This document shows, in pieces, positions 13,267 through 37,228 of a DNA stretch of 63,364 nucleotides; position 1 is the stretch's first letter, and every line of letters begins with the position of its first letter. The notes below the pieces were generated by a model that had not been told where the DNA came from, made no database searches, and was given only the letters and a program-made list of their open reading frames with translations. Made by a program: the position numbers and the translations under genes. This DNA comes from an uncultured Clostridia bacterium (lineage in GTDB: Bacteria > Bacillota > Clostridia > Christensenellales > UBA1242). The DNA is taken from NCBI GenBank assembly GCA_944332185.1, contig CALVJJ010000001.1, forward strand, positions 66,422-129,785, read 5' to 3'.

Positions 13267-14457
13267 TTAGCCCCCGTAAGCTTCTGTAATATGATTGATC
13301 CATGCTTGTGGACAAGTAGACCAATAGGTATATTCTTCTGTATCGTAGATACCATCTTGGTTCCCACCCCAAATGGTAATATCTTCATTCATGCCATTAT
13401 CGAATCTTGTAATAATAGATGCATGATTTGCTGTACTCATTGCTTGAATGGTGATCTTAATGGTAAGATTTTGTCCTGCGAATTCTGATCCTATGTTTTC
13501 ACCAACTAGTTCTATACTATCAAACAAACGATAGGTTTTCGTTTTTGGTTCTAGTTGGTAAGCATAATAGTACCAGCCATCATCTTCTTTACAATATGGT
13601 GTGCCGTCCCAAGAATTAACAAGACTATCTTCTACTTCCTTGTCATAATGATACCAATAATCACTATTAGCTGTGACATGAATAAGATTATTCATCAGTC
13701 TACCATCATAATAAGCATCGACTCTATATCTAATATAGACAGTTTCCCAATTCCCCTTATCTTGTGGTGTAAAGGAATTCTGTGCCACAATTTCATTCGT
13801 GATCTTGTCCCCTGGATCTAGATCAGATACACTATACTTAAAGTCTGTAATCTCTGCATCTGTATATGTCACACCATCAATGCTAACGCTCACACGTGTA
13901 GATCCATCACTAGGTGGATTGATCCATGTCACATATACCCAATACGTACCACCAGCAAGCAAGCCGATGAGTAATAGGAACAGTAGCAAAAGTATCAACA
14001 ATCGTCTTCTCTTTTTCTTTGGTTGTTCTTGGGTATTCTGTAATGTTTTTCCTTTTGCTTTGGCAAGTAATTCTTGATTACGTAGTTGGATCTTTTCTCT
14101 TTCTGTAAGTGGTCTTCTTGGTTGGGAAGAAGTGTCTGTCTCTTGCAATCTTGCTTGTTTTATTCTTTCTTGCAGATCACTAATCGACGTATCTTCTTTT
14201 GGTTGATTGTCTACATTGTTCGATTGCTGTTGTACTCTTTTTTCTCGTTCTGCACGAAGTCTCTCTTCTTCTTGTTGTTTTGCTAGTTGCTCTGCTCTAA
14301 TTCTTTGCGATTCAGCTAGTACCGAACGAAAATCAAAGTTATTCTTCTGCTCTTGTGTTGGTCCAGCATTGGCTTTGGACTGCTCTTGCATTCTTTGTTG
14401 CTGGAGTCTTCTCGCTTTTTCTAGCAGATCATTCGTGTTGTTCCCTTTTTCTTTCAT
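13267..14457 (-). CDS. Membrane-anchored TasA/BsaA-like protein with long Q/E/R-rich N-terminal region
   Basis: ~150 aa charged coil, KKKRRR + Leu-rich TM ending GGTYW, then LDPGD, YIRYRV, DGWYYY, ITIQAM motifs shared with neighbouring paralogues. Confidence 0.75.
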   Translation of the reverse strand: MKEKGNNTNDLLEKARRLQQQRMQEQSKANAGPTQEQKNNFDFRSVLAESQRIRAEQLAKQQEEERLRAEREKRVQQQSNNVDNQPKEDTSISDLQERIKQARLQETDTSSQPRRPLTEREKIQLRNQELLAKAKGKTLQNTQEQPKKKRRRLLILLLLFLLLIGLLAGGTYWVYVTWINPPSDGSTRVSVSIDGVTYTDAEITDFKYSVSDLDPGDKITNEIVAQNSFTPQDKGNWETVYIRYRVDAYYDGRLMNNLIHVTANSDYWYHYDKEVEDSLVNSWDGTPYCKEDDGWYYYAYQLEPKTKTYRLFDSIELVGENIGSEFAGQNLTIKITIQAMSTANHASIITRFDNGMNEDITIWGGNQDGIYDTEEYTYWSTCPQAWINHITEAYGG

Positions 14458-14722
14458 AATCTTTCCCACTTACATGCTCACTCTTTTCTATATAGTGTGT
14501 GCATTATTCCCATTTTATTTCTAGTTCTATTGTATCAAATAGAATAAAAAACAGCAAATTGTTTAGAAGAATATTTCCAATATTATACTGAAAATTTTGT
14601 GTAAATAACTTTTGCTTTTTTACATCATTTTGTATCTTGTATGTGTTGTGATATAGTACCCAATGATCTTGGTGTTTTTAAAAAAAATAGTCTCCCACAA
14701 TTCCAAATACATATTCCCTAAA

Positions 14723-14751: not shown

Positions 14752-14770
14752 AGCAAAAGGAGTATTTTGC

Positions 14771-15367
14771 ATGCAACCAATCACAAAAAACGTGTTGTGG
14801 GTGGTGGGTATTGTTGTCCTATTGGGTATCATGATCGGTGGATCACTAGCCTATTTTAGCAGTATTCGTTCGCAACGTGGAGATATTCAATTCGCCGAAG
14901 TTTCTGGTATCACCATGGGAGATATTCACCCCCTTACGAGTGAGAATAGCCTTATTATTCCCGGCGACCAAATACAAAATCCGATCTCTTGGCAAAATAT
15001 CTCTCCCATCGATCATTCCATTACAAGACAAGCCGATGTGTTCGTACGAGTCAGGCTAGATGCCACTTTAGATACGGTAGATACCAATGCCATACAACTG
15101 ATTTTTCAAAAACCACAACAATGGATCTGGGGTAATCAAGGGTATTACTATTATACCGGTTATGTCGCACCAGCAGAAACCATTGCTATCATCAGTGGAC
15201 TATCTGTCAGCACAAAACTGACTAGAATGTATTCTGGCAAAGATGTGAATCTAACCATTCATATCGAGTGTCTGCAAGCTCCTTACCAAGCCTACCAATC
15301 TGTCTGGGCAGATGCCCCACAATATTGGATAGACAACTATGCCAGCACGTATGAGGTAACGACATGA
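14771..15367 (+). CDS. SipW-dependent TasA/BsaA-like protein
   Basis: Signal GGSLA|YFS; IIPGD, VFVRVRL, GYYYYTGYV, IHIECLQ, WADAPQYW. Confidence 0.85.
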   Translation: MQPITKNVLWVVGIVVLLGIMIGGSLAYFSSIRSQRGDIQFAEVSGITMGDIHPLTSENSLIIPGDQIQNPISWQNISPIDHSITRQADVFVRVRLDATLDTVDTNAIQLIFQKPQQWIWGNQGYYYYTGYVAPAETIAIISGLSVSTKLTRMYSGKDVNLTIHIECLQAPYQAYQSVWADAPQYWIDNYASTYEVTT

Positions 15368-15939
15368 GACAAGAAAAAAAGATAAAGGTACAACGTATCA
15401 TCTATAGCATCAGTGTGGCTATTCTATTCTTCCTATCTATACTAGTCCTTTTCTATGTGCCAAATACGTTGAGTTATTTTTCACAATCTGATCAAAAAGA
15501 CACAGAGACCAAAGTCGGTACAGTATCTACTTTGATCTTACCTAGTACCACCAGTGCTTTTGTCTATGATGGCTCCCCCATCATCTGTCCTATGACCATC
15601 ACCAACATTTCTGATCTAACAGTCTATACCAGAGTCATGCCGATGATTCGGTGGCAAGACTATCTTCCTAATCCTAGTACCATGACCATAGTAGAAAGTG
15701 AAGACTATGTATTAAGTACTGATGATTGGTACTATATTCCTTCCTCTATTGCACCCAATGAAAGTCACACTTTTACCATACAATTAGATCTTATTCCTAC
15801 AGAATATCTAGGCAAAACTGTCTATCTGGATCTCTATGTCGAAAGTGTACAAGCTAGTCACTTAGCCTACCAAGATACATTCCCTACTGCACCTGAACAA
15901 TGGATAAAACTCATTACCCCATCATCTACACAAGCATAG
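15364..15939 (+). CDS. SipW-dependent TasA/BsaA-like protein
   Basis: Signal NTLS|YFS; VYTRV, DDWYYI, YVESVQ, FPTAPEQW; ATGA overlap with upstream gene. Confidence 0.8.
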   Translation: MRQEKKIKVQRIIYSISVAILFFLSILVLFYVPNTLSYFSQSDQKDTETKVGTVSTLILPSTTSAFVYDGSPIICPMTITNISDLTVYTRVMPMIRWQDYLPNPSTMTIVESEDYVLSTDDWYYIPSSIAPNESHTFTIQLDLIPTEYLGKTVYLDLYVESVQASHLAYQDTFPTAPEQWIKLITPSSTQA

Positions 15940-15976
15940 ACTCCTACATCTTCATTCTCTTATCATGCGATAGCAC

Positions 15977-16007
15977 AAAAAAAATACGACCGAAGTCGTA
16001 TTTTTTT
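15977..16007. terminator. Bidirectional intrinsic terminator
   Basis: AAAAAAATACGAC-CGAA-GTCGTATTTTTTT; C(UUCG)G loop on minus strand; between convergent genes. Confidence 0.85.
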
Positions 16008-16016
16008 CATTTTAGA

Positions 16017-16721
16017 TTAAGCTCCGATACCAAATGCATCATCCATTACAGCAGCAACTGCAGAAATAGTATTTGCTGTACTTGCTGTGCTTGCATCCAA
16101 ATATGTACTTTGAATTGCCTCTGCTATGAATTTTACAGTAATAGATTTCAAAGCAACTGCATTTGTCCAGTCAGATGGAACGCTAACTTTACCATCCAAG
16201 AAGGCAACACTTGCAGCAACTGATGTAGCATCTACTTCTTTCATGACAGTTGAATCACTCTCAACAGTTGCAACATCACTATTATCAACTGTAGGTTTAG
16301 TACCAACATAGTAATAATATTGATCATCACCTAATTTCCAACCTTTAGCAGCAGCAGCTTCTTTGATTTGGTCATTGAATTCTGTTGTTAATGTTTCAGC
16401 CTCAGTACCAGTAATTTCAACTTTCAATCTAAAGAATGCTTTTGTACTGCTTTTAGCCATGTTAACAAAAACTTTAGAATCAATTGGTTGTCCTGGGACT
16501 AAGTTGGAACCACTGAAAGTCACTTCAGCTGCGTCTTTAGTGTATTCATCATCACTTTCCATAGCGATGTTAATAGCACCACCCATGGTTAATGTACCAC
16601 TTGCTTCTCTTTTATCCAAGAACCATGCCATGGTACCTCCGACAGCAACAGATGCAAGCAAGAGTACACTTAGCACTGCAATCATCAAAGTTTTCACATT
16701 GAATTTTTTGGCTTTTTCCAT
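16017..16721 (-). CDS. SipW-dependent TasA/BsaA-like protein, candidate major subunit
   Basis: Signal GGTMA|WFLD; LVPGQ, AFFRLKV, DQYYYYVG, FIAEAIQS; AGGAGG RBS, own promoter and terminator. Confidence 0.88.
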   Translation of the reverse strand: MEKAKKFNVKTLMIAVLSVLLLASVAVGGTMAWFLDKREASGTLTMGGAINIAMESDDEYTKDAAEVTFSGSNLVPGQPIDSKVFVNMAKSSTKAFFRLKVEITGTEAETLTTEFNDQIKEAAAAKGWKLGDDQYYYYVGTKPTVDNSDVATVESDSTVMKEVDATSVAASVAFLDGKVSVPSDWTNAVALKSITVKFIAEAIQSTYLDASTASTANTISAVAAVMDDAFGIGA

Positions 16722-16758
16722 TTTTTCCTCCTATAATATTTTTTCATCCGACACCTAT

Positions 16759-16787
16759 ATTATAGAATTTTTTTAAAAAGTTGTCTA
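16759..16787 (-). promoter_or_regulatory. SigA-type promoter
   Basis: TAGACA-17 nt-TATAAT. Confidence 0.7.
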
Positions 16788-16892
16788 ACAAAATTCGATA
16801 TATTTTTTAAAAAAATTGTTTCTCTTTTGCTGTCTATGTATTGTAGATACTTTTTGCTAGATTGTGCCTTTCCATTGTGCTTAAAGACTTAT

Positions 16893-16926
16893 AAAAAACA
16901 AGAGGTAGTATACACCTCTTATTTTT
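16893..16926 (-). terminator. Intrinsic terminator after 16949..17626
   Basis: AAGAGGT/ACCTCTT stem with U-tract on minus strand. Confidence 0.65.
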
Positions 16927-16948
16927 ATAACAATTTTCATGCTATTTC

Positions 16949-17626
16949 TTATGCATTGGCATAGTTGGACAACCAATCTTCTGGCGCTGTTGTCCACACT
17001 TCACTTGCTGCACCATTGGCTTTTTGAATAGCCTCGACAACTACTTCTATACTAAAAGTCTTTTTGGCATCATCATTGGTGAGATCCGTAGGAACAGTGA
17101 TAGATGTCACAAAGTCTTGACTAGATCCTGCAGTAAATGTACCTTTGTAATAATAGTAATCATCACTATCGCCTTTTTGCCACGTATTTACTGTCGTGGC
17201 TTTTACTGTTTTTGATGCTCCATCGGTATTGGTAATGGTCAATTTTGCTCGTACCAATGAGTCAGATGTATCATCTGGTTGGCTGACACCGATAGCTTGG
17301 TCATAGACTGTACCAGGCAGTGCATTGCCCGGGAAAGTAAGACTTGATGCAGAACTTCCGCCTTGGGTAATATTGATATTGACAGGATTCCCTAAAGTAA
17401 TGGTACCACTGGCACTAGCGTTAGCTAGGAAGTAAGCAAGTGTTCCCCCTACGGCAATACTGATGAGCAGTAGTGCAGAAAGCACTGTCACAGCGATCAT
17501 TCCCCCTCTTTTCCTTCTTCTAGGTGTAGAAGTAGAAGACTGTGCAATGGAACTAAGTTGTTCTACTTTTTCTTCTTGTGTAGTTGGTTTTTTTGTAACA
17601 GTTTTTGTTGTTTTTTTTGTCGCCAT
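16949..17626 (-). CDS. SipW-dependent TasA/BsaA-like protein with extended basic N-terminus
   Basis: Signal GGTLA|YFL; ALPGT, SLVRAKL, DDYYYYKG, VVEAIQ, WTTAPEDW. Confidence 0.88.
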   Translation of the reverse strand: MATKKTTKTVTKKPTTQEEKVEQLSSIAQSSTSTPRRRKRGGMIAVTVLSALLLISIAVGGTLAYFLANASASGTITLGNPVNINITQGGSSASSLTFPGNALPGTVYDQAIGVSQPDDTSDSLVRAKLTITNTDGASKTVKATTVNTWQKGDSDDYYYYKGTFTAGSSQDFVTSITVPTDLTNDDAKKTFSIEVVVEAIQKANGAASEVWTTAPEDWLSNYANA

Positions 17627-21401: not shown

Positions 21402-23174
21402 ATGAATATAAAGAAATCTTTATTGGTTTTGTTGCTCTGCGGAGGATTTTTCATTAGTTCTATGGGATTGACGGCATGTAGTCCATCAGCTCCAACTACA
21501 GCAACAGCAACAAAACCAAACGGTGGAGATTTACCTGATCCACCAAAACCAGATCCAGATCCAGATCCAACACCTGATCCTGATCCAGATCCAACACCTG
21601 TATACGAATGGCGCTATGCAGACATCTTACAACCTACCATTATCGTGGGTGGTATTAGCGACACCGTATTAGATAAAAATGTACAAAAACCTTTCATAGA
21701 TATTGTTGATCGACAAATTGATATGCTTGCTGAAGAACTTGTATCTCGTATAGAATACATCTATGGTACGAACAATATCAACACCACACACAATATCAAA
21801 GATACCACTGATGGTAGCCTATTCTCTAGTTATTCTAGTATGAACATCTTCTCTGATACAATTACCGCAAATATGTCTGTGTACAATTACAAAGATGAAT
21901 ATGTAATGAGCGACGGTACCATTATGCTAGATAGTAATGGAGAAAAAGTGCTTTTTGATAGTACAAAACATAGTTATTATGTACAAGAAGATGGTGTAAA
22001 ATATGCAGCAGTGACATCACTGAATGTTGGTGGACTCTTTACAAGTGCTACAGCTTTTCAATACACCATGCAACAGATCGGTCGTCCAGCTTTTGATATG
22101 TCTTATCCTGATGGATACGAACTTGATAGTATCCTTACCTTATCTGGAGCCATCTACGGCACCCCAACATGGAAAAGAGAAACAATATCACTTTCTCAAG
22201 ATTATTATGAATACACTTACAATCAAAATGAATTCACTACCCCTTGGAATTGGGCTAATGATTTTGCCAATGGTACTATCAAAGATAAAGTAAAACACTA
22301 TCTTGCCTATATCATAGCCAACGATATTACAGATTATCAAGATCTACCAAATGAAAGTGTGATCTTATCTAGTGACTATGATACTTTACTTACCAATATT
22401 GGTGAAGTAAATAATTATATATCTACTTACCAAGATTTGATCTTTGATACCCTTACAAAACGTATGATTGGCACTGCCTATGAAGGAGATAGTCAGGCTG
22501 GACAAGATGGTGCTACCATTGCTTTAGCCATTGATCTAGCGATTAGAAAAATGGATCCAAATGTTGCTCAAACATTTTTCTACAATGGGAATTATCGTTC
22601 TTTATATGATGATTCTACTACTGAAGGTATCCTTAATATGATCAATGAAAAAAGCACTATGAATATTTATATTATACAATATGATCATGCTCGCAATTAC
22701 AAAGCATACGACGTGATTTTGAAAGGGATTTTAAGACAAATAGCCCAAGTAGATGATTACCAATCTTGTCTTCCTGTATCCTATGCTACCCAGTCTCTAT
22801 CACAAACACAAGTCTCTTCGGCTTATAAAGATACTACAGATGTCTATTTCTTCTTCAAACAATCTGTCAACTTAAATAGTTATAAAATAGCCCTTGGAGT
22901 ACCTTACGATACAGACATAAAACTCACAGATAAGAATGGCAATACGGTAAACTACACTAAAGAAAAAGATGATCAAAATCATCTTGTCATTACCATCAAG
23001 ACAACGGTCAATGGGACATCTAGTATTCCTACCAATCTAAAAAATATTCAAGGATATGGTGCGACATCTACTATACAACAACTTTTAGAGAATACCAATT
23101 ATCTATGTATTCATTTTGATACAGTAGAAAGTTTTACTTTATACCCTATGGTCTTAACACAAGTCAATGCATAG
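21402..23174 (+). CDS. Lipoprotein of unknown function (paralogue of 23249..25459)
   Basis: Lipobox LTAC, Pro/Asp linker, shared blocks IVDRQI..AE...SR....YGT and ARNY..Y. Confidence 0.85.
   Translation: MNIKKSLLVLLLCGGFFISSMGLTACSPSAPTTATATKPNGGDLPDPPKPDPDPDPTPDPDPDPTPVYEWRYADILQPTIIVGGISDTVLDKNVQKPFIDIVDRQIDMLAEELVSRIEYIYGTNNINTTHNIKDTTDGSLFSSYSSMNIFSDTITANMSVYNYKDEYVMSDGTIMLDSNGEKVLFDSTKHSYYVQEDGVKYAAVTSLNVGGLFTSATAFQYTMQQIGRPAFDMSYPDGYELDSILTLSGAIYGTPTWKRETISLSQDYYEYTYNQNEFTTPWNWANDFANGTIKDKVKHYLAYIIANDITDYQDLPNESVILSSDYDTLLTNIGEVNNYISTYQDLIFDTLTKRMIGTAYEGDSQAGQDGATIALAIDLAIRKMDPNVAQTFFYNGNYRSLYDDSTTEGILNMINEKSTMNIYIIQYDHARNYKAYDVILKGILRQIAQVDDYQSCLPVSYATQSLSQTQVSSAYKDTTDVYFFFKQSVNLNSYKIALGVPYDTDIKLTDKNGNTVNYTKEKDDQNHLVITIKTTVNGTSSIPTNLKNIQGYGATSTIQQLLENTNYLCIHFDTVESFTLYPMVLTQVNA
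21552..21599 (+). repeat. 24-bp tandem duplication encoding DPDPDPTP x2
   Basis: GATCCAGATCCAGATCCAACACCT / GATCCTGATCCAGATCCAACACCT. Confidence 0.85.
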
Positions 23175-25473: not shown

Positions 25474-26163
25474 TTAAGCCCACCATGGATTACCATTATT
25501 GCCAGTCAAAATGGTTTGTGCATCAATATTATTAGATTGTATAGCTTCTACAACGAATTTCATATCCAAAGTTTTGCTAGCAAGTTCATTGGTGACCGCT
25601 TTGTCAATAACAAGTGTCCCATCAACTAAAAAATCGATCACTTGATTGTTTTTGACAGCCATTGGCAAATCAGTTGTTTGCTCCATGAGTACCCACCAAT
25701 CTTCACTTGTACCAAGATCATTGGTAAAAGTTAATTTTTCCCAATAATAGGTATGGTCTCCATTCCCATTAGGATCTTGACCCAGATAAATTTTGTCTTG
25801 CATGGTTACTAAAATACCATCAATATAAATATTTTCAATTTCAAACTTTGCTCGTACATAAGCCACGGTATCAGTATCTGTACTTCCTTCTCTTGTCACA
25901 TACGTACGAAGAGTAAGTCCTGTAATAACTGATCCCGGTTGTACTTTAGCTGGTTCTATAGGTGCCACACCACTGATAGATTGTCCATTCATATCAAAAG
26001 AATTGGATACCACAATAGGTTTTCCAAAACTAATAGATCCACTAATAGATTTTTGTTGTACCATAATAGCCAGTGTTGCTCCAACGAACAAAATAGCGAC
26101 CAAAAAAACGGTTAGGCTAATAATCAAAATCTTATATTTAGGCAAAGGTCTATTTTGTTCCAT
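25474..26163 (-). CDS. SipW-dependent TasA/BsaA-like protein (divergent)
   Basis: Start ATG 26163 (GGAG RBS); signal GATLA|IM; VQPGS, AYVRAKF, VTNELASK, FVVEAIQS. Confidence 0.8.
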   Translation of the reverse strand: MEQNRPLPKYKILIISLTVFLVAILFVGATLAIMVQQKSISGSISFGKPIVVSNSFDMNGQSISGVAPIEPAKVQPGSVITGLTLRTYVTREGSTDTDTVAYVRAKFEIENIYIDGILVTMQDKIYLGQDPNGNGDHTYYWEKLTFTNDLGTSEDWWVLMEQTTDLPMAVKNNQVIDFLVDGTLVIDKAVTNELASKTLDMKFVVEAIQSNNIDAQTILTGNNGNPWWA

Positions 26164-26213: not shown

Positions 26214-26840
26214 TTATGCTCCATATCCCAAATCTTGCATAGCTTGTACCCAATTACTTGGCAAATTTTCTTCTCCCCAAAGTTCCAGACAAGCTGTCCA
26301 ATTATCTTGTACTGCTTCAGCTTCGATATGAATAGATACAGCATCAATCTTGCTTCCTGTTGTGTCCACCACTTCCCCGTTGATAGAACCTGTCGAATAG
26401 GAAGTAATGAGTGTGCTTTCTTCATTCACATCTAATGCTCCTACATAGTAATAATAGGTGCCATCTGCAGTGTCTTGTGCAATCCAAGATAATGTATCTC
26501 CATTATAATAGGCAATATTTGGCATAATAAAAGAAGAACTAGTGCTTACTTTGACTCTAACAAACATAGCTATATGATCGAATACATTCGTATTGACAAT
26601 TTTTGTAGTACCACTATAGGTATTATTAGGCACAAGTGGCACTTTTGGATCTGGATAGGTAGACTCTACTTGTACCACTACTTGTCCCATGACCACTTCT
26701 TCTTCCCCACTATCTTTTCCTGCAAACCATGATAGTGTACTATAGATAAAGGATACCAACAAAGAAACACAAACTATGACTAATAAAGTTTGCAACAAAA
26801 TATTAGTTGGTTCTTTTTCTGCAACAATATGTCTTTTCAT
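26214..26840 (-). CDS. SipW-dependent TasA/BsaA-like protein
   Basis: Signal STLS|WFA; LVPNN, MFVRVKV, DGTYYYYVGAL, IEAEAVQ; AAGGAGG RBS. Confidence 0.85.
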   Translation of the reverse strand: MKRHIVAEKEPTNILLQTLLVIVCVSLLVSFIYSTLSWFAGKDSGEEEVVMGQVVVQVESTYPDPKVPLVPNNTYSGTTKIVNTNVFDHIAMFVRVKVSTSSSFIMPNIAYYNGDTLSWIAQDTADGTYYYYVGALDVNEESTLITSYSTGSINGEVVDTTGSKIDAVSIHIEAEAVQDNWTACLELWGEENLPSNWVQAMQDLGYGA

Positions 26841-26997: not shown

Positions 26998-27690
26998 TTA
27001 TAGATAAGCTTTCCATGTATCTGGTATAGGTGACCAAGGCTTATTGATAGAAGATGTTTTATAAGGATTGTTGTCATACGCAATAGCCTCTGCCTCAAAA
27101 TTCACATATACAGGATCGCTCAAATCTAATTTTGTCGTATCTATGATGTCGATACTCGTAATAAAGGCAACTTCTCCATTGGCAGGAATCACAGCATTGT
27201 AGTAATAATCTCCTGCATAATGAGTAGGATCTTCTTCGTTTTCAAACAAATTAGAAAAGATCCAAAGTGTATCCATATTCAAAGACAATTCGTCAGCACC
27301 TAATTCTCTATAAAATACTGGATTGCCTTGACTATCAACAATAAAAGAGTCTGTCGCAATAGATACAGATGCAAGACGTAATAGCACACTGACTGAACTA
27401 GTATTCTTAATTTTGACAAGACCGGTACTTACCTGATCTCCATGATGAAAAGCCATAGATGTTTGGCCAGCACCATCTTCTATTTTTTGATAAGTAGAGG
27501 AATCTGTATCATAAGCATAGACTTCTAGTCCAATATTGGCAATAGGCAAATCTCCTGACGTATCTTCTTTTTTATCAGAAAACCATGCCAATGAAAAAGA
27601 ACAGCCTGTTAGTGACAACATAAGCATGACAAGAATCAAAGAAAAACAAACTCTTTTGATGATCCAACTATATGGTTTTTGCTTTGTCAA
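26998..27690 (-). CDS. TasA/BsaA-like protein with both lipobox and SipW-type motif
   Basis: TTG start at 27690 after GGAGGAGGTG; LTGC then SFSLA|WFSD; VLLRL, GDYYYNAVI, FEAEAI, WSPIPDTW. Confidence 0.8.
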   Translation of the reverse strand: MTKQKPYSWIIKRVCFSLILVMLMLSLTGCSFSLAWFSDKKEDTSGDLPIANIGLEVYAYDTDSSTYQKIEDGAGQTSMAFHHGDQVSTGLVKIKNTSSVSVLLRLASVSIATDSFIVDSQGNPVFYRELGADELSLNMDTLWIFSNLFENEEDPTHYAGDYYYNAVIPANGEVAFITSIDIIDTTKLDLSDPVYVNFEAEAIAYDNNPYKTSSINKPWSPIPDTWKAYL

Positions 27691-28534: not shown

Positions 28535-31500
28535 TTATGCCTGCCATTTTAGTTTTACATGGTCGCTAGAAGCGACAAATTCTAAAGTAAGTCCTGTCAT
28601 TTGACTTAGATCAGTATACACAGTCACCCCTGTAAGACTTAAGGTGTTATTACTCATCGTGATTTCGCTAGATTCGTATGTCTTGATCAAAGTTTGATTT
28701 TGACAATTACTATAGTAATACACGTTATTAAAGATTGAGTAACCATTTTGTTTTGCATTAGAACTATATGCAATTTGACCAAATTGATATCTATTATTCG
28801 TGCTTGTAATATCATGAATGACTACATAGCAATTCACAATAGAAGCGCTACTAACTGCCACAGCAGAATTGTTGTATGTTACCAGACCACCGACATAAGC
28901 AAAATTTTCTGTTAAAGAAGAGACATTACTATCTAGTACTAAATTGTCACTATTTATCAATACATAAGAGTTACTAATTCTTGGATCCATGTCTGCTCCC
29001 AAATATCTATTCAAGTTGTTTACCACTAAACCACCTACATAAATTGGAGATACTGAATTATTAGAATCTTTTGTCACTTGTACAGCACGAATAGAACCCG
29101 TAAAGTACGAAGTATTGAGTTGTGCATAGTTTTGATAAATAATACCAGCAATATTGCTACCACTTAGTACCCCTTCTACCCCACATTGTTCTACAAGTTG
29201 CTTATTTTCATACACAATACCAGCTAATTTTGAAGCATAACTAATAGATTGACTTTCGTTCGTGTTATTCGTCATATTCATAGTATTGACAACGTGTTTG
29301 ATTGTCTTGTCGTTGGTATAAGCAACACCTGCTACAATAATTTCTCCAGATGTTCCTGTATAAGTTGTGAGCGATCCACTTAGTGTAATATTCACAATGG
29401 TACCTTGGTTCCATTCGGTAATCATAAATACATGTAGTTCATTTGATGTACTTGCTGGCATAACGGTAAGAGCATTGGCGACAACAGAAATATTACTGAT
29501 AGTACCTGTATTAGTACCTGCTACAAATGCCAAATTGTTGACCGTATATGTTCCACTAATTGTAAGACTAAGTCCATCAATAGTTCCGTTATTCGTATCA
29601 GCAATTAAGCGATAGGTTGATTTAGATATATTATTATTCTTGGTGATTACCAAATTGGTTACACTGCCATCTTTGGTAATTGTCCCAAACAAACTTTCTG
29701 TATAGGTATTAGGAATAGTAAGAGTTTTTCCATTACCCAGAATGACACCATCTAATTTTTCCATCTTTGTATAACTATTCGATAGAGTAATGTTATCAGA
29801 AAGTTGGAAGTAATAATGAAGTGCAACTGTACCATCTACTGATTCATACGAAATGGTGTTACGTTCTCGAATAGCCAAGAATTGTTCGGCTGTACTAATG
29901 ATGTAAGGATCTTTTTGTGATCCACTACCACTCGCATAAATAGAGTAGTTAGCTGTAAAATCAAATGGTAATGACATCACACCTAAGTCATTCATTGCAT
30001 AAATTTTGACGGTATATTGTTGTGCAATCGTTGGAAGATAATAAGTTGTAGCAGATTTTGCAAGAACGATTGGACCAGAGGAAATCGTCTCTCCATTTCT
30101 CATGTAAGAGTATTCCAATACTGGATAAGCTGTGGTGGTTTTATTCGTCCATACAATCTTACCATTTTGTTGTAAAGATTGAACATCTACTACTGGAGTT
30201 TGAGGAAGTTCGATATCCATATAACTATCTTCGTCTATCAATAAGCTAGAAGCATACAAATGATCTTGTGTATTTTGATCAGCAGAAATAGTACTACCCA
30301 TTGCTTCTACATAAATTCGATATACACTTTGTTGAATATTGGCAATAGAGAATTTCCATACATTTTGCTCTGGATCATATTCAAAATCTTTTTGTTGATC
30401 GACTTGATCCACATATACAATGTATTCACTATCATATTCATACACACCATCTGTATTTGGTACATATACATATACTTTATATCCTAATGCATGATCAATA
30501 CTGTTCCATTTTATGAAATTACCTGCACTGGTATCTGCATCATCAGTGGATAAGGTAACATGCTGTAAAATAGTAAAGTTCATGCGAGCAATTTCACCAT
30601 CTACATAGGTTGTATTGCCTAGCACACTCTTAAATTGTACAGTAATGGTATATACAACATTTGGTTGTAAGTATTCCCCATTACCAAGTGTAATGGTATT
30701 TAGATCAAGATTGGTCGTAGTTCCTGTATAAGATTGTTTAAAGATAGCCAAATTGCCTTGTAAAATTTCAACAGCTATTTCTCCTACTTCTTCAAATCCA
30801 ACTGAGGAAGTATTCCATACAATCTTACCTTGTTCCAATCTCAAATCTGGAGCATTCAGTTTTGTGACAGTAATAGAATTAGAGAACACACTAGACAACT
30901 GCTGCGTGATGCTGTCAGCTAGATTTCTTAATTTGATTTCATAACTTCCAGCTTTGTAGTTGGCATCTAGACTAAATGTCTTACCAAAAACCTTTTCTTC
31001 TAGTATGGTTCCGTTCACCATGACTTCAAATTGATTACCTGTGCCGTCCCATGTGATCTTACCATTTTCAATTCTAAGTCCTGTTGGAGCAGACAATCTA
31101 CTATATCCTGTATCCATAGTGGTATAAGAACTTCTTAAATAAGCAAAATTGTCTTCTGTTGGTTGTTCATCATCTTCTACCATATTGGCAATCGCAATTT
31201 TATAATATTGCAATAATCCATCTACATATTGTAGATATTGATCTCCAATAGCCAAACGAGATTGTTCTCCTAATTGACTACTAACAATAGAGTATTCTTT
31301 ATCTGTTGTGTATCCGCCGTTTTGTTCAGCACTTTGATATACCATTGCTTTTGCTGCTGTTGGACTTGTCACGACTGCATCTACCCAATTTGGAGTCCAT
31401 ACAAAATCTCCATAATCAAGATCAATGGTATTGCCTCCTTGTAAAATTTCTGGCAAACGATATACTTTTACTTCTGGGCTCCATTCACCATTTAAGAAAG

Positions 31501-34500
31501 CAGTTCCATCGCCCAATGCTCTAACCTTAAAGGCATACCAGCCAGCGCCAAATTGATGTTCAGCAAAATCTACATCTAGATCTTCATACGTGATGATTTT
31601 ACTATCATAAATTCGAACAATATCTGCTTCTTGTTGTCCAATCACATCATCTTTTGACGTGATCTTATAGACGTGTACTTCGTATTGAAGCGCATTACTA
31701 ACAGCACCTGTACCCCACATCAATTCCCCATCTTTTACAAATGGTATAGCTTCCGTAAGGATTTGTGTTTTACTACTTGTCCCTACCCCACTACGAAGAA
31801 TAATGGTTTCATCTGGATCAACTGCTGTACTATCTTCTGTTCCTAGTACTCTAACACGAATGTAAAAATCTTTTCCTTGGTTAATTGGCGAAGTCGCATT
31901 TAATAATTCACGCACGTTTACTTCTCCATATTGTCCAGAAAGGTTCTTTTGTGGAACAATATATTCTTGATAAGTGATTGCCATATTCATATCATAAGAA
32001 CCATATTCCACTACATAAGTTGTATCTAAGGTTGTAACTTCTTCTTCACCTTGTTGTATGAAAGGTACTTTTTTGAAAATGATGGTTTCATTGTGGATAT
32101 AAGAAGAAATATATGTATCTCCTTCTCCCGTAGCAATAGATTGTGGAGCAATGGATCTATATACTGTCATCAAACTACTTGGGTAGTTCGCATTGACAAA
32201 TAAATCATATTGTGCTTCTGTATCTCCAGTATTACCCAAGCTACGAAGTTTGATTTGATAATACCCTGATGCTCTCATGATGGAAGTCTGGCTGTTATAG
32301 ATCATATCATCATAGGATAAAATCAATTTTTGATTCTCATCATCGCTGACGATAGTAGATACTACTAGTTTTTGATAAGCAAAAATTCCCACACTAGATC
32401 CATTCATACCTAAATTGGCTGCACCCAATTCAAAATACACTAATTGTGCGAGCGAATTAAAATAAGTTGTTTCTTGTGGTGTCATTTGTCCACCATGATA
32501 TTTTTTCACAAGGTTTGCTAATTCCACCCCTGCTTGATAATCAAAAGGTTGGATTTCACCTTCCATATTTTGATATTGCATCATAGAGTTAATGGTAGCA
32601 AAAGGCAAATCCCATGTCAAAATACCATTGATCACTCGTACATTTTGGAGTGGCGACAATTTTGTAACTGTAATCGTAGCTGGAATATCATTAGATAGAA
32701 CAGTTTTTCCATCACCTAATGGGTAAAGAGCTATAAAATACTTTCCACCTTGTCCTAATTCTTCTAATTCATAAGTCGTTTCATACATATTGTCTATGAC
32801 TTTTAGGGCATCTTTTTGCGTATAAGAAGTATCAATTCCTTCTTCATAATCATACATTTTGATCATGAACTTTGTGGCATTTCCTAAATCCCATGTTAAG
32901 ATCCCGTTACTAACTTGCAAACCAGTGATTTGGCCTAAAGTTGTATACGAAATTGGAGTAGATATAGCACTGGTCCAATATCCTATTGCGCCATCTGTAA
33001 GACTTACTTGATCACTCCCAACTGCCAAAACTACATATTGATGGGTTGTCCCTTCAATGTCAGTATTGACCATATAATATTGATTTTCTTCTGTTTGTGC
33101 AATCAAGGTAAGGGTAGGATCTTCATTACCTTCTTGACTCACTACTTCATAAATCATATACGATGTAGCACCATTCACAGCATTCCAAGTTAGCGTTGCT
33201 GTATTGGTTTGATCATTGAGTACCACTGCCAAGTTTTGTGGAGCTTGCATTCCTTGAATGACTGCATCTACTGTAGTTTCACTGGTAATGATATTCCCTG
33301 TTTCCTCATCATAACAAGCAATAGCAATATGATTTTGTTGTTCTGCAACAAACTGATTACCAGAGTAATATAACACGCCATCTTCTTCGTAAAATTCATA
33401 TCCTACTCTTTGTACAGTTTCAGCATCTTTGGCTTCTTCAAGTAGAATAGGTGCCCCGTTAAGATATAGAATATATTTTGTTGTAGGTGTTGCGTTGCTT
33501 GGGGCCTTCCATTGTAGCACCCCTTGTATTACACCAGAAATCACTGATGCTTTCTTTCCTACGATCAAGTTGGTTGCTGTACTTAATTTTGTCACAGCTA
33601 TCGTTTCTTTTTGTGTACTACTAATAGTACTACTACCATCACCAATCACTGTAATGGTTACTTGGTAATTGCCCACATATTTTTGTTGGTCAGTATCTTT
33701 AAAAGCAAAAGATTTTTGTAATTTATTATCTAATGTAGTACGAGTTTCTCCTTGCACTAACTCCAATTCAAATCGAACAGGTTGTTGTCTATCTACATAA
33801 TCATATACCAAAATTCCATCTTCTACTCTTACATTGCTGACGCCTGATAATTGATATGTACTTGTTGCTGTAGGCGCACTACTTACATATCGTACACTAT
33901 CCCCGATAGCCGTAAGAGAAAAATCGAATTCTCCTGCATTTGGTAATACTGGTAATGCGGTAGATAGTGTCAAAGCATCTAGATCTTGATGATATTCCAT
34001 GGTATTACTTGCATCAATAGCATAACCTGTTGCATGTTCTACTGTTTCCCACAAGAATTGATTATTTTGAATTCTAAACTGTGTAGGGCTTGGTAGTTTT
34101 TCTACTTCAAAGGCAGTTTTGTTTTTATTAGATGTCATATAATCATCATGTGTTACTTCTACAATCAGTTGGTAAGTTTTTCCTGCCACTAGCATAGATC
34201 CAATATTGGTACTACTATCTTTAATACCTGCTTGTATCGTTTCATACATCACACCTGTGTCACTTTTCACAACATGATAAATATTGTAAGATACTCCTTC
34301 AATTTGGCTATCCACAATTTGTAAAACGCCATTTTGTAAAGTAAGACTTCCCACAGCCAATTTGTCAAATTCCAATGCAATAGAATCTTCACTGCTGATA
34401 ATATTCACATCATCACCAATCGCTGTGACAGTGGCTGTATATTTTCCTGCATCAAGATCAGCATAATAGGATAATCCAGAAACTGTTTCTAATTTCCCAG

Positions 34501-37228
34501 TATTTAATTTGACTTGATACCCAGTAGCTGTAATACCATAACTAGTCAAATCTCCAGTAGACCAAGTTAATTTTCCTTGTGCCATAGCAAGTTGTGGAGT
34601 GTTTAATTTGTAAAACTCTTTTGCTTGTGTTTGTACTGATGTCAAATATCCTATTCCAGATGTAACACTGTTGCCTATTGCATACACGGTGGCCAAATAT
34701 GCACCAGATTCTGCTACTTGAATCGTATAAGTGTTGGCAGATACTTGTTGGGTGTATTTGACTTCATGATTTTGAGAGATAGTCACTTGATATGCTGTAG
34801 CACCTGTGACAGTATCCCAAGATAATGACACGACATTATCTTTTTTTGTCATAGACACAGCATTCATGCCTAAAAGTGTAATTTTCATTGCTGGACTATA
34901 TGCGCTACTTAATTTCCCATTTTGTTTGACTCTGACAGCAACTTCATAAGGTGTTTGCATTGTCAAATACGATCTAATATCCACTGTGATATCTTCTGTT
35001 GTAATGACTGTAGCCAAGGCTTGATCTTGATAGATGGCTAGTTCATAAGTAGCTTCTTCTAGTATTCCACTTTGCTCATTTTCTACAATGACAAGTTCGC
35101 CATTTACCGTTTTGACACCTTCTGGAGTATACAACATAGCAAAACTATATTCTGTCCCTTTACTCATGACAGTATTATAATTATTACCCCAAGCATAGAT
35201 GGTAATAGTATTTTGCCCTGCTACTGCATGACGTGGTGCATATTGTGTTTGATTTCCAATGTAATAATACTGCGCATTTTGTGATTCTTTGATGATATAC
35301 CCAGTGGACTTTGCCACACTAGAGAACGAAATGGTCTGTGTATCATCATGGAATTCTATATCTTCAAAATCTGTATTTGGTAATACTTCGAATGTAAAAC
35401 CGTAAGTCGTTGTATCTTGAAAATCTACTGTACTAGAGATGACAGCATTTTCCCCATTGGCTTGTACCCATACATGATAGATCGCTGGATCCATCACAAA
35501 ACCAAATGTGTAATTTGTATCAGTTGTTGTAGCCACTCTAGTTGCTTGTTCACTGCCTTTTTGCAGGTAAATGGTATAACTCGTAGCATTTTGAACAGCT
35601 TCCCATTCTACGGTTGGATTCACCCAATCCGTGATGATCTCTAGATTATCACTTTCTGGTACTGTTGTTTTTGTGCCTTGGTTGGTTACACAGGTAATAG
35701 TGGCATTATTGAGTTTTTCAATTTCGATTCCATCTATTAGTAATTTGTTACTATTGACTAGATTCAATCCGGTATTTTCTTTTGCAATCACTCGAATGGC
35801 AATGTGATATAGACCTGCATTTTCAATAATCAGTCCTACTTGACTACTGTTGCCTGTGACGATACTTGAGTAGGAATCAATTTCATTTTCATAATAGATT
35901 TGGTATTCTTCTACTCCAATCACACTTTCAAATGTCAAAAGATTGCCCGTTAGTTTTACACTAGATGGATTGATAGATCCGATCTTGGTAAAGGAAAGTA
36001 CTTCACTGATAGTTCCATCAATGGTATTATCTTCCCCATGTGCCATTACTTGTAAATGATACTCCCCTGCATTCAATTCTTCAGGGATTTTGTATTCATT
36101 CACATAGACATCTTCTTGTTTTACTTCTAGTCCATCTGTGGTTGTGATTTTGACCGTATAATAGGTCGCATATTCTACGGTATCCCAACGAATGATTGAC
36201 TGATCTTGTCCATTGTGAATGGTAAAATTCGCAACTTGAGAAAGTGGATAAATTGTCAAAGAATGGGACCACTCACTTTCCAAATACACATATTTTGTAT
36301 CTGTTGATGGGTGAATAGCTTTGACTCGAATAGAGTACTCATCATAAGAAGGAAATTCTTCTAATAAAGCATACGTTATTTCTTCTTCTCCATTACTAGG
36401 AATAGTTACTATCGTCGTAGTTGGTTGTCCATGATCTAGGTAGGTAATTTCTACTTGATAAGCATTGGCTCTAGCAACTGGATCAAAATAAATGACACCA
36501 TCTTCTTGACGAATATCTGTCACTGTTTCCAATGCTGTAAAGTATAACTCTTGTGAATAACTACCATCTGCTGTTGTGGTACCATTACCATTTGCTTTGA
36601 CTTTTACTGTATATTCATGTCCTATTGTAAAATCTACCACTTGGTATCGTACGATATTTTGATAAGTTGGATCATAATAGACAGTAATAGGATCCAAAGT
36701 TTCTGCATTGTCAGTCATCACCAATGTGTAATTCTTGGCATCATCGATCTTATCCCATATCACATATCCATCTTCATAGACTAGATGTGTTGGAGTAGGT
36801 AAAATGGTAGGATCTACTACTTGGAAAGTAAAGGTATCTGATCGAACAGGTAGACTTTTTGTCTCAATATGTACAGTCACTTCTCCACGATTGACAGCAT
36901 GAATCAACACACTACCCATGACTCCGTTTTGTGTTGTTTCCACAATTTCTGCTGCATCAGCAATTCCTGTAAAAAATACATTCACATCATTTTGTGTGGA
37001 AGTACCTGGTCGAATTTGGTAATCTATCTTAATGGTAGAACCGACATAGACAAAATTTTCACCATCAACAACATAATCTCCAATGGAATCTTTGTTGTTG
37101 ATCGTCAGTGAAATAGGCGTGGTCACAATGGTTGGTGTATCATTCTTACTAGAACAACTGCACCCCCCTAAAATAGCTACACAAAAGATAGCAAAATACA
37201 TTAAAATTAAAGATGTTTTCCTTTTCAT
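28535..37228 (-). CDS. Giant (2897 aa) surface lipoprotein with many FN3-like repeats and a C-terminal GLUG-like beta-solenoid
   Basis: Lipobox LGGC; more than 20 repeats of type L..P......G.L.W..V..A..Y.V...Y...V.A.G....S..S; GSGSQKDPYIISTAEQF followed by GGLV..N / AGIV..N repeats. Confidence 0.85.
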   Translation of the reverse strand: MKRKTSLILMYFAIFCVAILGGCSCSSKNDTPTIVTTPISLTINNKDSIGDYVVDGENFVYVGSTIKIDYQIRPGTSTQNDVNVFFTGIADAAEIVETTQNGVMGSVLIHAVNRGEVTVHIETKSLPVRSDTFTFQVVDPTILPTPTHLVYEDGYVIWDKIDDAKNYTLVMTDNAETLDPITVYYDPTYQNIVRYQVVDFTIGHEYTVKVKANGNGTTTADGSYSQELYFTALETVTDIRQEDGVIYFDPVARANAYQVEITYLDHGQPTTTIVTIPSNGEEEITYALLEEFPSYDEYSIRVKAIHPSTDTKYVYLESEWSHSLTIYPLSQVANFTIHNGQDQSIIRWDTVEYATYYTVKITTTDGLEVKQEDVYVNEYKIPEELNAGEYHLQVMAHGEDNTIDGTISEVLSFTKIGSINPSSVKLTGNLLTFESVIGVEEYQIYYENEIDSYSSIVTGNSSQVGLIIENAGLYHIAIRVIAKENTGLNLVNSNKLLIDGIEIEKLNNATITCVTNQGTKTTVPESDNLEIITDWVNPTVEWEAVQNATSYTIYLQKGSEQATRVATTTDTNYTFGFVMDPAIYHVWVQANGENAVISSTVDFQDTTTYGFTFEVLPNTDFEDIEFHDDTQTISFSSVAKSTGYIIKESQNAQYYYIGNQTQYAPRHAVAGQNTITIYAWGNNYNTVMSKGTEYSFAMLYTPEGVKTVNGELVIVENEQSGILEEATYELAIYQDQALATVITTEDITVDIRSYLTMQTPYEVAVRVKQNGKLSSAYSPAMKITLLGMNAVSMTKKDNVVSLSWDTVTGATAYQVTISQNHEVKYTQQVSANTYTIQVAESGAYLATVYAIGNSVTSGIGYLTSVQTQAKEFYKLNTPQLAMAQGKLTWSTGDLTSYGITATGYQVKLNTGKLETVSGLSYYADLDAGKYTATVTAIGDDVNIISSEDSIALEFDKLAVGSLTLQNGVLQIVDSQIEGVSYNIYHVVKSDTGVMYETIQAGIKDSSTNIGSMLVAGKTYQLIVEVTHDDYMTSNKNKTAFEVEKLPSPTQFRIQNNQFLWETVEHATGYAIDASNTMEYHQDLDALTLSTALPVLPNAGEFDFSLTAIGDSVRYVSSAPTATSTYQLSGVSNVRVEDGILVYDYVDRQQPVRFELELVQGETRTTLDNKLQKSFAFKDTDQQKYVGNYQVTITVIGDGSSTISSTQKETIAVTKLSTATNLIVGKKASVISGVIQGVLQWKAPSNATPTTKYILYLNGAPILLEEAKDAETVQRVGYEFYEEDGVLYYSGNQFVAEQQNHIAIACYDEETGNIITSETTVDAVIQGMQAPQNLAVVLNDQTNTATLTWNAVNGATSYMIYEVVSQEGNEDPTLTLIAQTEENQYYMVNTDIEGTTHQYVVLAVGSDQVSLTDGAIGYWTSAISTPISYTTLGQITGLQVSNGILTWDLGNATKFMIKMYDYEEGIDTSYTQKDALKVIDNMYETTYELEELGQGGKYFIALYPLGDGKTVLSNDIPATITVTKLSPLQNVRVINGILTWDLPFATINSMMQYQNMEGEIQPFDYQAGVELANLVKKYHGGQMTPQETTYFNSLAQLVYFELGAANLGMNGSSVGIFAYQKLVVSTIVSDDENQKLILSYDDMIYNSQTSIMRASGYYQIKLRSLGNTGDTEAQYDLFVNANYPSSLMTVYRSIAPQSIATGEGDTYISSYIHNETIIFKKVPFIQQGEEEVTTLDTTYVVEYGSYDMNMAITYQEYIVPQKNLSGQYGEVNVRELLNATSPINQGKDFYIRVRVLGTEDSTAVDPDETIILRSGVGTSSKTQILTEAIPFVKDGELMWGTGAVSNALQYEVHVYKITSKDDVIGQQEADIVRIYDSKIITYEDLDVDFAEHQFGAGWYAFKVRALGDGTAFLNGEWSPEVKVYRLPEILQGGNTIDLDYGDFVWTPNWVDAVVTSPTAAKAMVYQSAEQNGGYTTDKEYSIVSSQLGEQSRLAIGDQYLQYVDGLLQYYKIAIANMVEDDEQPTEDNFAYLRSSYTTMDTGYSRLSAPTGLRIENGKITWDGTGNQFEVMVNGTILEEKVFGKTFSLDANYKAGSYEIKLRNLADSITQQLSSVFSNSITVTKLNAPDLRLEQGKIVWNTSSVGFEEVGEIAVEILQGNLAIFKQSYTGTTTNLDLNTITLGNGEYLQPNVVYTITVQFKSVLGNTTYVDGEIARMNFTILQHVTLSTDDADTSAGNFIKWNSIDHALGYKVYVYVPNTDGVYEYDSEYIVYVDQVDQQKDFEYDPEQNVWKFSIANIQQSVYRIYVEAMGSTISADQNTQDHLYASSLLIDEDSYMDIELPQTPVVDVQSLQQNGKIVWTNKTTTAYPVLEYSYMRNGETISSGPIVLAKSATTYYLPTIAQQYTVKIYAMNDLGVMSLPFDFTANYSIYASGSGSQKDPYIISTAEQFLAIRERNTISYESVDGTVALHYYFQLSDNITLSNSYTKMEKLDGVILGNGKTLTIPNTYTESLFGTITKDGSVTNLVITKNNNISKSTYRLIADTNNGTIDGLSLTISGTYTVNNLAFVAGTNTGTISNISVVANALTVMPASTSNELHVFMITEWNQGTIVNITLSGSLTTYTGTSGEIIVAGVAYTNDKTIKHVVNTMNMTNNTNESQSISYASKLAGIVYENKQLVEQCGVEGVLSGSNIAGIIYQNYAQLNTSYFTGSIRAVQVTKDSNNSVSPIYVGGLVVNNLNRYLGADMDPRISNSYVLINSDNLVLDSNVSSLTENFAYVGGLVTYNNSAVAVSSASIVNCYVVIHDITSTNNRYQFGQIAYSSNAKQNGYSIFNNVYYYSNCQNQTLIKTYESSEITMSNNTLSLTGVTVYTDLSQMTGLTLEFVASSDHVKLKWQA

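Follow-up and report, generated by a model that had tools for sequence, protein, structure and literature searches.

Fibres of the TasA type have mainly been described as biofilm matrix, in Bacillus and Clostridium perfringens, and reports of mixed or ordered ones are only beginning to appear. We asked what is built by a locus in which eight TasA-like genes, here named A to H, accompany one gene for a SipW-type signal peptidase (sipW) and one for a giant lipoprotein, in an uncultured Clostridia bacterium (Christensenellales, UBA1242; assembly GCA_944332185.1). The window that we analysed is the whole stretch of 63,364 nt from contig CALVJJ010000001.1 of this assembly, and the eight paralogue genes span its positions 13267-27690. 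We propose, with a probability of roughly 60%, that the window encodes a surface-fibre system of the TasA/BsaA superfamily, which would consist of several specialised subunits encoded in two modules. A first-pass annotation of the same DNA had suggested a single, sortase-independent, pilus-like heteropolymer, and the eight open reading frames (ORFs) that it listed are all present where it had placed them.

In TasA, residues 28-38 form a donor strand, which is freed by SipW and completes the sheet of the next subunit (PMC9674648). Export and polymerisation of BsaA also need SipW, and a terminator follows bsaA (PMC7395162). BsaA oligomers are described as membrane-anchored in a 2025 preprint, which also notes several BsaA/TasA paralogues per putative operon and suggests heteropolymers (PMC11580942). 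Heterofilaments of TasA and CalY, together with CapP, are reported from B. cereus (PMC13082335). The TasA superfamily is described as cross-domain, including AbpA, AbpX and the tafi (PMC9245690; preprint 10.64898/2026.01.04.697558), and for the haloarchaeal tafi an AlphaFold model gives the order tip, adaptor, core and anchor (PMC11821415).

Family membership of the eight paralogues

We aligned the eight window proteins alone (alignment A1). Each of them has a single N-terminal hydrophobic segment, and two residues, an R and a Y of the YYY strand, are the same in all eight. The motifs which had been listed as common to all eight genes are visible in this alignment, but not each in every protein: [ST]-[LM]-[AS]-[YW]-F is found in six (B, C, D, E, G and H), the PG turn in five, and the E[AS][IV]Q-like strand in five (C, D, E, F and G), while A, B and H have variants of it. 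Most of the paralogues, though not D, also have a W..P..W motif at the C-terminus, which that list did not include.

In an all-against-all BLASTP comparison, B, C, D, E and F were linked at E-values of 1e-7 to 2e-24, and A, G and H weakly, at about 1e-3. A hidden Markov model (HMM) of 140 database representatives, from which all window rows were left out, recovered all eight near full length (E-values 2e-17 to 6e-52) and also a ninth gene on another contig (2.5e-26), while no other ORF of the window was matched at E <= 10. When the window-only and the representatives-only alignments were compared by hhalign, a probability of 99.9 and an E-value of 2e-35 were obtained over 184 columns. The membership of the eight in one shared family is far beyond chance. 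Of 1.84 billion representatives, the profile of the eight matched 6925 at E <= 1e-3 and 1261 at E <= 1e-10.

We examined the relation to characterised fibre proteins with two larger alignments: A2, with 148 rows (8 window rows and 140 representatives), and A4, with 109 representatives and no window rows. At E <= 1e-3, TIGR04090 (BsaA family) was matched by 94/148 rows of A2, TIGR04088 (SipW-type signal) by 89/148 and NF046066 (TasA) by 22/148, the best row reaching 4e-25 against TIGR04090. Peptidase_M73 (PF12389; TasA/camelysin) was matched by 86 of the 109 representatives of A4, the first listed with a score of 32.1 (cut-off 22.5), and a [TS]-x-[AS]-[YWFA]-[FY] motif occurs in 108 of 150 representatives. 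Among solved structures, profile A2 retrieved the TasA fibre 8aur first (E-value 3.2e-4), followed by TasA 5of1 and by AbpX; profile A4 again placed 8aur first (1.7e-3). The alignment of A2 and A4 to TasA covers the donor strand/PG region (F-N-D...S-G-T-L-D-L...P-G-D) and the last strand (F-E-A-T-Q). Judged by such transitive profile evidence, and not by curated thresholds, the eight are diverged members of the TasA/BsaA (Peptidase_M73) superfamily.

The signal model TIGR04088 (cut-off 19 bits) gave 21.3 bits for D, 19.2 for E, 15.2 for B, 12.6 for C and 23.8 for the ninth paralogue in a six-frame search of the genome. When the proteins were scanned singly, the scores were 17.3 (D), 16.3 (E) and 13.5 (B), with no match for A, C, F, G and H. 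B reached 17.2 bits against TIGR04090, which is under the cut-off of that family.

Proteins that share the TasA fold and signal type need not polymerise, and the eight could be membrane-tethered or secreted monomers, such as binding proteins or camelysin-like enzymes. The name of the Pfam family, that of a metallopeptidase, would agree with this, and polymer formation here rests on family analogy. The peptidase label, however, is considered probably mistaken (PMC11580942), conservation with TasA is best in the donor strand and the final strand, and the characterised members TasA, BsaA, CalY, AbpA and AbpX are all described as filament-forming. We consider monomers very improbable.

A quick maximum-likelihood tree (55 rows) showed no pair of window paralogues as sisters. 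Each grouped with orthologues from other genomes, with a support of 100 for A, C, F, G and the E clade, 99 for D, 95 for H and 91 for B; the copies are therefore old and represent distinct subunit types. Within the class, 18 of the 150 sampled genomes have a family match. A genome of the same family, G123, has 14 matches as compared to 9 in the present genome, many of those in G123 being limited to the signal region of larger proteins.

The ninth paralogue (258 aa, GASFA-WY motif) is a solitary gene at L009:1797-2573 (G000:C12), between spoIIE-like and tilS-like genes whose names were read from the translations alone. It is the only paralogue that passes TIGR04088 in the scan of single proteins (21.2 bits), it falls into one clade of the tree with D, and an orthologue is present in G001, a genome of the same genus.

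The SipW-type peptidase and the export background

The product of sipW passed the cut-off of TIGR02228 (86.3 bits against 51.85), which agrees with its earlier naming as sipW and marks it as a peptidase of the SipW/archaeal type. It did not reach the cut-off of NF046067, the equivalog of Bacillus SipW (75.1 bits against 190). By these scores, the window peptidase is the same type of enzyme as Bacillus SipW and not the Bacillus orthologue. The SM.P Ser, THRI His and GD Asp motifs, which we take to hold the catalytic residues, are kept among sipW and four related peptidases, three from relatives and one the second such enzyme of the genome itself. Among 40 relatives, TIGR02228 was matched in 14 of the 15 that have TasA-like genes and in 13 of the 25 that do not; this co-occurrence is an enrichment and not an exclusive link.

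That one sipW lies beside the paralogues is correct in so far as only one adjoins them, but a second archaeal-type signal peptidase and the ninth paralogue are found on other contigs. The second peptidase belongs to a four-gene system at L010:2987-6829 (G000:C2:92986-96828), which encodes a 181-aa signal-anchor protein with a weak match to the TasA-like HMM (E-value 7e-6), a 355-aa secreted protein, a DUF5305 protein and the peptidase (377 aa), in which a catalytic domain (TIGR02228, 74.6 bits) is joined to a membrane region of several passes. This second system resembles the AbpX-type loci, encoding a signal peptidase of ten helices, that are mentioned in a preprint (10.64898/2026.01.04.697558). 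The genome also has one ordinary bacterial-type signal peptidase.

Sortase independence, which the first-pass annotation had proposed, is supported: the sortase domain PF04203 had no match in the 97%-complete genome, while it was found in three reference genomes used as a control, and none of the eight translations has a C-terminal sorting signal. A TasA-like protein of a related family (L038:8313-8960, G026) ends with P-K-T-G-D, a hydrophobic segment and KKKKK, which resembles a sorting signal of the sortase type, and therefore some relatives may anchor such fibres to the wall. TapA/YqxM (TIGR04087) had no match in the genome at E <= 0.01 (it was found in B. subtilis as a control), a flagellin search of the genome gave no match, and the type II/IV secretion ATPase family gave marginal partial matches only, with no clear type IV pilus ATPase.

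Two modules and their recurrence in relatives

The locus consists of two separable modules (Table 1). The first one comprises E, B and A, with C and D, beside a gerA-type germination operon: A and B are separated by 313 nt, C overlaps B by 4 nt and is therefore likely co-translated with it, and D follows C after 77 nt and E follows D after 227 nt. The second one is a co-directional string of the giant lipoprotein gene, sipW, H, G and F; the start of sipW lies 1 nt after the stop of the 2897-aa ORF, as had been noted before, and the further gaps are 345 nt from sipW to H, 157 nt from H to G and 50 nt from G to F. The 7.8 kb between the modules hold four genes without family match, which encode two proteins of 333 aa and 636 aa that lack membrane segments and two lipoproteins of 590 aa and 736 aa.

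Synteny across related genomes had been named as a check on the locus, and both modules recur. G001 has two lipoprotein genes in a row, then those of the 636-aa protein, an E-like protein, D, A and the transglutaminase lipoprotein, and last gerA, which mirrors the window minus B and C, and these syntenic neighbours are 34-47% identical as compared to 71% for GerA. The trio of E-, B- and A-type genes is also found in L027 (again beside gerA), in L028 and in G123. B-type genes adjoin E- and A-type genes in L027, L028 and L059, and A-type proteins with the same build (tail, helix, outer domain and no A-x-F motif) adjoin E- and B-type genes in these three loci and in L033.

For the second module we surveyed 14 sipW loci, which were hand-picked from search matches. 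Seven of them have a TasA-like ORF within 3 kb of sipW, and seven have an ORF of at least 1000 aa within that distance. In G011, sipW is preceded at a distance of 84 nt by the gene of a 2658-aa lipoprotein (24% identity to the window giant over 800 aa) and followed by three TasA-like genes, which is the order of the window. A giant gene stands directly upstream of sipW on the same strand also in G013 and G026, in the latter followed by four TasA-like genes, and G007 has a giant beside sipW together with three or four TasA-like genes. In other genera, the co-directional giant directly upstream of sipW was observed at L048:1699-14010 (G011), L053 and L038.

Terminator-like hairpins were found between C and D, after E and directly after sipW (Table 1), and a near-consensus promoter-like site lies upstream of D (16787-16759). 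The overall count of promoter-like sites in the window was no higher than that in shuffles (68 against 73.7), an Rfam scan of the window found nothing, and a repeat search of the window returned echoes of the paralogy in coding DNA and no shared operator.

Proposed roles of the subunits

Protein A has a charged cytoplasmic tail of ~150 aa, a polybasic/poly-Leu membrane helix and a TasA-like outer domain, and it lacks a cleavable A-x-F motif (GGTYW-VYV). Its orthologues, 47-48% identical, retain this architecture. An anchor subunit had been postulated, and one paralogue with membrane-anchor architecture indeed exists; from its build, A is likely the membrane anchor and, as we propose, the terminal strand acceptor.

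Protein E is the most conserved paralogue. It has 708 homologues, the best of them ~60-74% identical, its conservation extends along the whole length, and its identity across genera is 58-67%. We propose that E is the major (bulk) subunit, and from the analogy to TasA, cleavage is predicted between A64 and Y65.

Protein D marks a hotspot of variation between strains, where contig pieces differ by 3.4-7.9% as compared to 0.4-2.1% elsewhere in three of four runs. Over 15971-17202, we counted differences of 72/934 nt in X8, 97/1233 nt in X13, and 53/1048 nt and 46/1349 nt in X11. X5 and X8 have 98 other letters in place of the 31 nt at 15939-15971. In run X5 the whole 20-kb stretch is colinear at ~98.6% identity.

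The variant motif of F is kept in F orthologues, and the C orthologue P0125 is 74% identical to C. When metagenomes were scanned with G, the sequence of the window itself was the sole match. H groups in the tree with the sipW-adjoining gene of G007 (support 95). H has a lipobox-like L-T-G-C that lies five residues (SFSLA) before the predicted A-WF cut site, and H could therefore be lipidated instead of, or before, SipW-type cleavage. We rejected this lipobox as a conserved feature, as the G007 counterpart has no Cys there.

From these properties, assembly would proceed as follows. The subunits would be inserted via Sec by their N-terminal signal anchors, and in B, C, D, E, G and H cleavage by the SipW-type peptidase would follow the small residue of the [ST]-x-[AS] motif and free an N-terminus starting with two aromatic residues. 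As in TasA, the freed strand would enter the β-sandwich of a neighbour by donor-strand exchange. A would not be cleavable at the motif because W occupies the -1 position; if uncut, its N-terminus would stay in the membrane, and A could therefore accept a strand and not give one, which would place it at the cell-proximal end as the anchor. E would form the bulk of the fibre, B, C, F, G and H would act as adaptor, initiator or minor subunits, D would be an exposed, strain-variable subunit, and the giant lipoprotein would be a partner surface protein coupled to sipW. Cleavage, polymerisation, the order of the subunits and the role of the giant are all proposed here from what is known of the family. 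In the 'exchange-and-lock' subgroup of BsaA, an N-E-K triad forms an isopeptide bond between subunits.

In G004 and G020, two genomes of the same family, three long proteins start with a SipW-type signal; they have 2412 aa (L044:2750-9985), 3914 aa (L045:911-12652) and at least 989 aa (L046:3472-6438). Those of 2412 aa and 989 aa match the TasA-like model over most of its length and may be adhesins fused to a fibre subunit. Such proteins would agree with adhesins at the tip that insert into fibres of this kind; the eight paralogues have no such fusion.

A bolder version of the proposal is that gut Christensenellales with genomes of ~1 Mb build an adhesive pilus of TasA fold without sortase, usher or TapA, in which A would be the anchor and acceptor, E the shaft and the old paralogues the ordered adaptors, with giant surface proteins that either carry a TasA-like head, as in relatives, or are lipoproteins whose translation is coupled to sipW, as here. 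We regard this version as tentative and, taken as a whole, rather unlikely.

One fibre or several

Several observations weigh against the proposed multi-subunit fibre. At the level of the family, none of the window proteins clearly reached a curated cut-off when scanned singly: D scored 19.0 against Peptidase_M73 (cut-off 22.5), E scored 26.9 bits against TIGR04090 (cut-off 60; E-value 3.7e-6), and C, F, G and H matched no TasA, BsaA or SipW-signal family. Profile A1 and the single sequences retrieved no TasA among the solved structures. The kinship to TasA and BsaA, for which an HMM search had been suggested at first pass, was thus confirmed at the level of the superfamily by profiles and not by curated per-protein thresholds. 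The canonical cleavage motif is not found in A (GGTYWVYV) and F (TLAIM). As to the peptidase, the presence of TIGR02228 in 13/25 relatives devoid of TasA-like genes means that this type of enzyme is not specific to these substrates, and the second SipW-type peptidase of the genome could act instead.

The first-pass annotation had treated the eight genes as a single locus, a view that the two separable modules weaken. In other genomes E orthologues had no TasA-like neighbour in 17 of the 21 loci that were fetched, some of these loci being short, and sipW had no TasA-like neighbour in 7 of the 14 picked loci. Co-location therefore need not mean one machine. The proposed lipoprotein accessories are not supported either, since the distribution of the 590-aa and 736-aa proteins is limited to the genus (1 of 40 relatives) and no observation links them to the fibre.

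The proteins could accordingly be superfamily members that form no single ordered heteropolymer: the modules, or single genes, would make separate homopolymeric fibres or matrix components that are used under different conditions or for antigenic variety, and their proximity would reflect rearrangement in a compact genome. The solitary E genes fit this explanation, as do the distance between the modules, the genes without family match between them and the terminator-like sites that each module has of its own. D is strain-variable in the way of a stand-alone surface antigen, and BsaA is reported to polymerise without BsaB or BsaC (PMC7395162). However, the adjoining trio of E-, B-type and A-type genes recurs in three other genomes and a sister species, two to four different paralogues follow sipW in 6 of the 14 loci, an uncleavable protein of the A type makes little sense as a homopolymer, and TasA-CalY heterofilaments exist (PMC13082335). 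We consider separate fibres unlikely, though an explanation to be taken seriously, and we prefer the fibre system of specialised subunits in two modules.

Genomic setting

The genome of this spore-forming gut bacterium is tiny, with 962,355 nt in 20 contigs, and is 97% complete; the fibre locus takes up ~2.5% of its DNA, and the G+C content of the window is ~34%. The DNA of the window is also present in chicken gut metagenome runs (nine coded studies). The relatives of protein E come from uncultured gut Clostridia labelled as Christensenellales, including Candidatus Onthoplasma. One of these relatives, the metagenome-assembled genome KY236-132, is placed in family UBA1242 among reduced-genome gut bacteria; many biosynthetic pathways and flagella are described as missing in UBA1242 and sporulation genes as retained, and because of the missing pathways its members are probably dependent on neighbours or host (PMC12306168).

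The left flank of the window carries rpoB/rpoC and the gerA operon, then a gene for a transglutaminase-core lipoprotein (10842-12866) and a cytidine deaminase gene. In G001 and L027, too, the gene of this lipoprotein (674 aa; transglutaminase core, 50.8 bits; Fn3-like modules) stands between gerA and the A-type gene. It is conceivable that the protein cross-links or trims the fibre or the spore surface.

TasA was first described as a spore-associated protein, and in a similar way the gene products could be parts of the spore surface, as coat or appendage, rather than fibres of vegetative cells. The first module stands directly beside the gerA operon and the transglutaminase-core lipoprotein gene, an order kept in G001 and L027, the ninth paralogue adjoins the spoIIE-like gene, Spo0A is encoded elsewhere in the genome, and a solved TasA entry is named 'Spore coat-associated protein N'. 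Yet the adjacency to gerA may be plain synteny. The signal anchor and SipW-type processing point to export at the membrane of the mother cell or the vegetative cell, which is compatible with a role at the spore and not specific to it. The known families of endospore appendages (Ena, F-ENA/DUF4183) are unrelated, and we rejected F-ENA/DUF4183 as the family of the paralogues for this reason; no such Pfam match was seen. A spore-surface role appears improbable to us.

The giant lipoprotein and other neighbours

The 2897-aa lipoprotein contains many divergent Fn3/Ig-like repeats and a repeat-rich C-terminal region. The Fn3-like W..V..A..Y.V motif occurs nine times in it as compared to a mean of 0.8 in shuffles, and a homologue that is 44% identical has one Ig-like domain. 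The giant had no match to Pfam or NCBIfam at cut-off, and three database proteins alone matched it at E <= 1e-5. Its C-terminal 600 aa were matched in 1 of the 40 relatives, being too diverged for statistics of co-occurrence. It had been called an adhesin; what speaks for this name is its size and the Ig/Fn3-like repeats, so that it is a guess from architecture, and a role in adhesion is a possibility. A shared ...W-Q motif lies near the end of the giants from the window, G007 and G011 and of two database homologues.

Just upstream of this gene lies a second giant gene (37736-43726; 1996 aa). Its product carries Listeria-Bacteroides repeats (Flg_new, 74.7 bits) together with a hydrophobic segment at the N-terminus, and it gave no match to the TasA-like HMM.

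The 736-aa lipoprotein is a distant paralogue of the 590-aa lipoprotein (E-value 4e-7). It was found in only 1 of the 40 relatives, and we did not count the two as members of the system. We considered a strand-like Q-V-x-N-A motif at the end of these lipoproteins as a conserved feature and rejected it, since the 736-aa protein's homologue in G001 has not retained it. A P-D-P-D repeat (21543-21593) close to the N-terminal end of the 590-aa lipoprotein differs in length among samples, and contigs of X5, X8 and X13 step back by 38-45 nt there. The starts of A (ATG 14457), F (ATG 26163), H (TTG 27690) and the lipoprotein after F (ATG 25459) were refined by their ribosome-binding sites.

Table 1. 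Features of the proposed fibre locus in window coordinates; HMM E-values refer to the model built from representatives only.
Feature	Position	Strand	Description	HMM E-value
A	13267..14457	-	396 aa, two-part membrane protein	2.3e-26
B	14771..15367	+	198 aa, GGSLA-YF motif; divergent from A	2.7e-37
C	15364..15939	+	191 aa, NTLS-YF motif	1.4e-23
Terminator-like hairpin	15978..16007	no strand	between convergent genes C and D	
D	16017..16721	-	234 aa, GGTMA-WF motif	1e-42
Terminator-like hairpin	16900..16920	no strand	between E and D, just downstream of E	
E	16949..17626	-	225 aa, GGTLA-YF motif	6.3e-52
590-aa lipoprotein	21402..23174	+	PDPDP repeat; no family match	
736-aa lipoprotein	23249..25459	-	14 nt downstream of F; no family match; start refined	
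F	25474..26163	-	229 aa, variant GATLA-IM motif without aromatic residue	2.5e-25
G	26214..26840	-	208 aa, YSTLS-WF motif	3.1e-27
H	26998..27690	-	230 aa, SFSLA-WF motif; most divergent; first paralogue after sipW	2e-17
Terminator-like hairpin	28033-28002		directly downstream of sipW	
sipW	28036-28533	-	165 aa, SipW/ER/archaeal-type signal peptidase I; N- and C-terminal membrane segments	
Giant lipoprotein	28535..37228	-	2897 aa, lipobox ...AILGGC; co-directional with sipW, ends 1 nt before it	

Significance and comparison with known systems

If the eight subunit types form an anchored and ordered fibre, the locus would show, in a compact natural case, how donor-strand exchange can build a complex pilus at a single membrane, and it would give a handle on the attachment of these uncultured bacteria. 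Should the fibre be an adhesive pilus of TasA fold, it would be a Gram-positive counterpart of the chaperone-usher or tafi architecture and a main means of attachment for metabolically dependent bacteria. If there is no ordered fibre, the locus would be another multi-copy TasA-family locus. Our literature searches found no description of the loci of this lineage, of a TasA-like membrane anchor of the A type or of the coupling of a giant lipoprotein gene to sipW.

The nearest parallel is the sipW-bsaABCRSD operon of C. perfringens. Both are from Clostridia, and in both a SipW-type peptidase is encoded with several paralogues of the TasA superfamily. Protein E matches TIGR04090, the BsaA family, at the E-value of 3.7e-6 given above, although the window proteins stay below its cut-off. 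A terminator follows bsaA, as a terminator-like hairpin follows the gene of the proposed main subunit E, and the membrane-anchored BsaA oligomers are, as they are described, not linked by sortase (PMC7395162, PMC11580942). In contrast, there are eight or nine paralogues here, while C. perfringens has two in the bsa operon and two more at other places of its genome. We saw no vWA protein like BsaC and no two-component system here, and the present locus has a subunit with membrane helix and cytoplasmic tail and a sipW-coupled giant, with no clear type IV pilus ATPase in the genome.

The tapA-sipW-tasA operon of B. subtilis and the sipW, tasA/calY and capP genes of B. cereus share with the window a dedicated SipW, the A-x-F type of signal end and, as proposed for the window, assembly independent of sortase. 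In the alignment to TasA, the matching parts are the region of the N-terminal strand and the E-A-x-Q strand, and the TasA-CalY heterofilaments are a precedent for mixed fibres (PMC13082335). Unlike in Bacillus, there is no TapA here, the peptidase stays at 75.1 bits where the equivalog demands 190, the types of subunit are many more, and the proposed anchor is a TasA-like membrane protein and not TapA or CapP.

With the tafi and the archaeal ABP/AbpX fibres, the window would share the layout of tip, adaptor, core and anchor, and donor-strand exchange at the cytoplasmic membrane (PMC11821415); AbpX itself appears among the solved-structure matches of A2/A4. The tafi are archaeal and use Tat signals and a generic peptidase, whereas export here would be of the Sec/SipW type. 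None of the eight is fused to an adhesin domain, though relatives have the 2412-aa and 3914-aa proteins with a SipW-type signal, the former with a full TasA-like domain.

The earlier statement that the locus is more elaborate than the described systems holds for the number of subunits in comparison with bsa and Bacillus. It does not hold in general, as operons with multiple paralogues are noted in PMC11580942 and G123 has 14 family matches against 9. This kind of fibre system is already known, and the present locus is a richer version of it.

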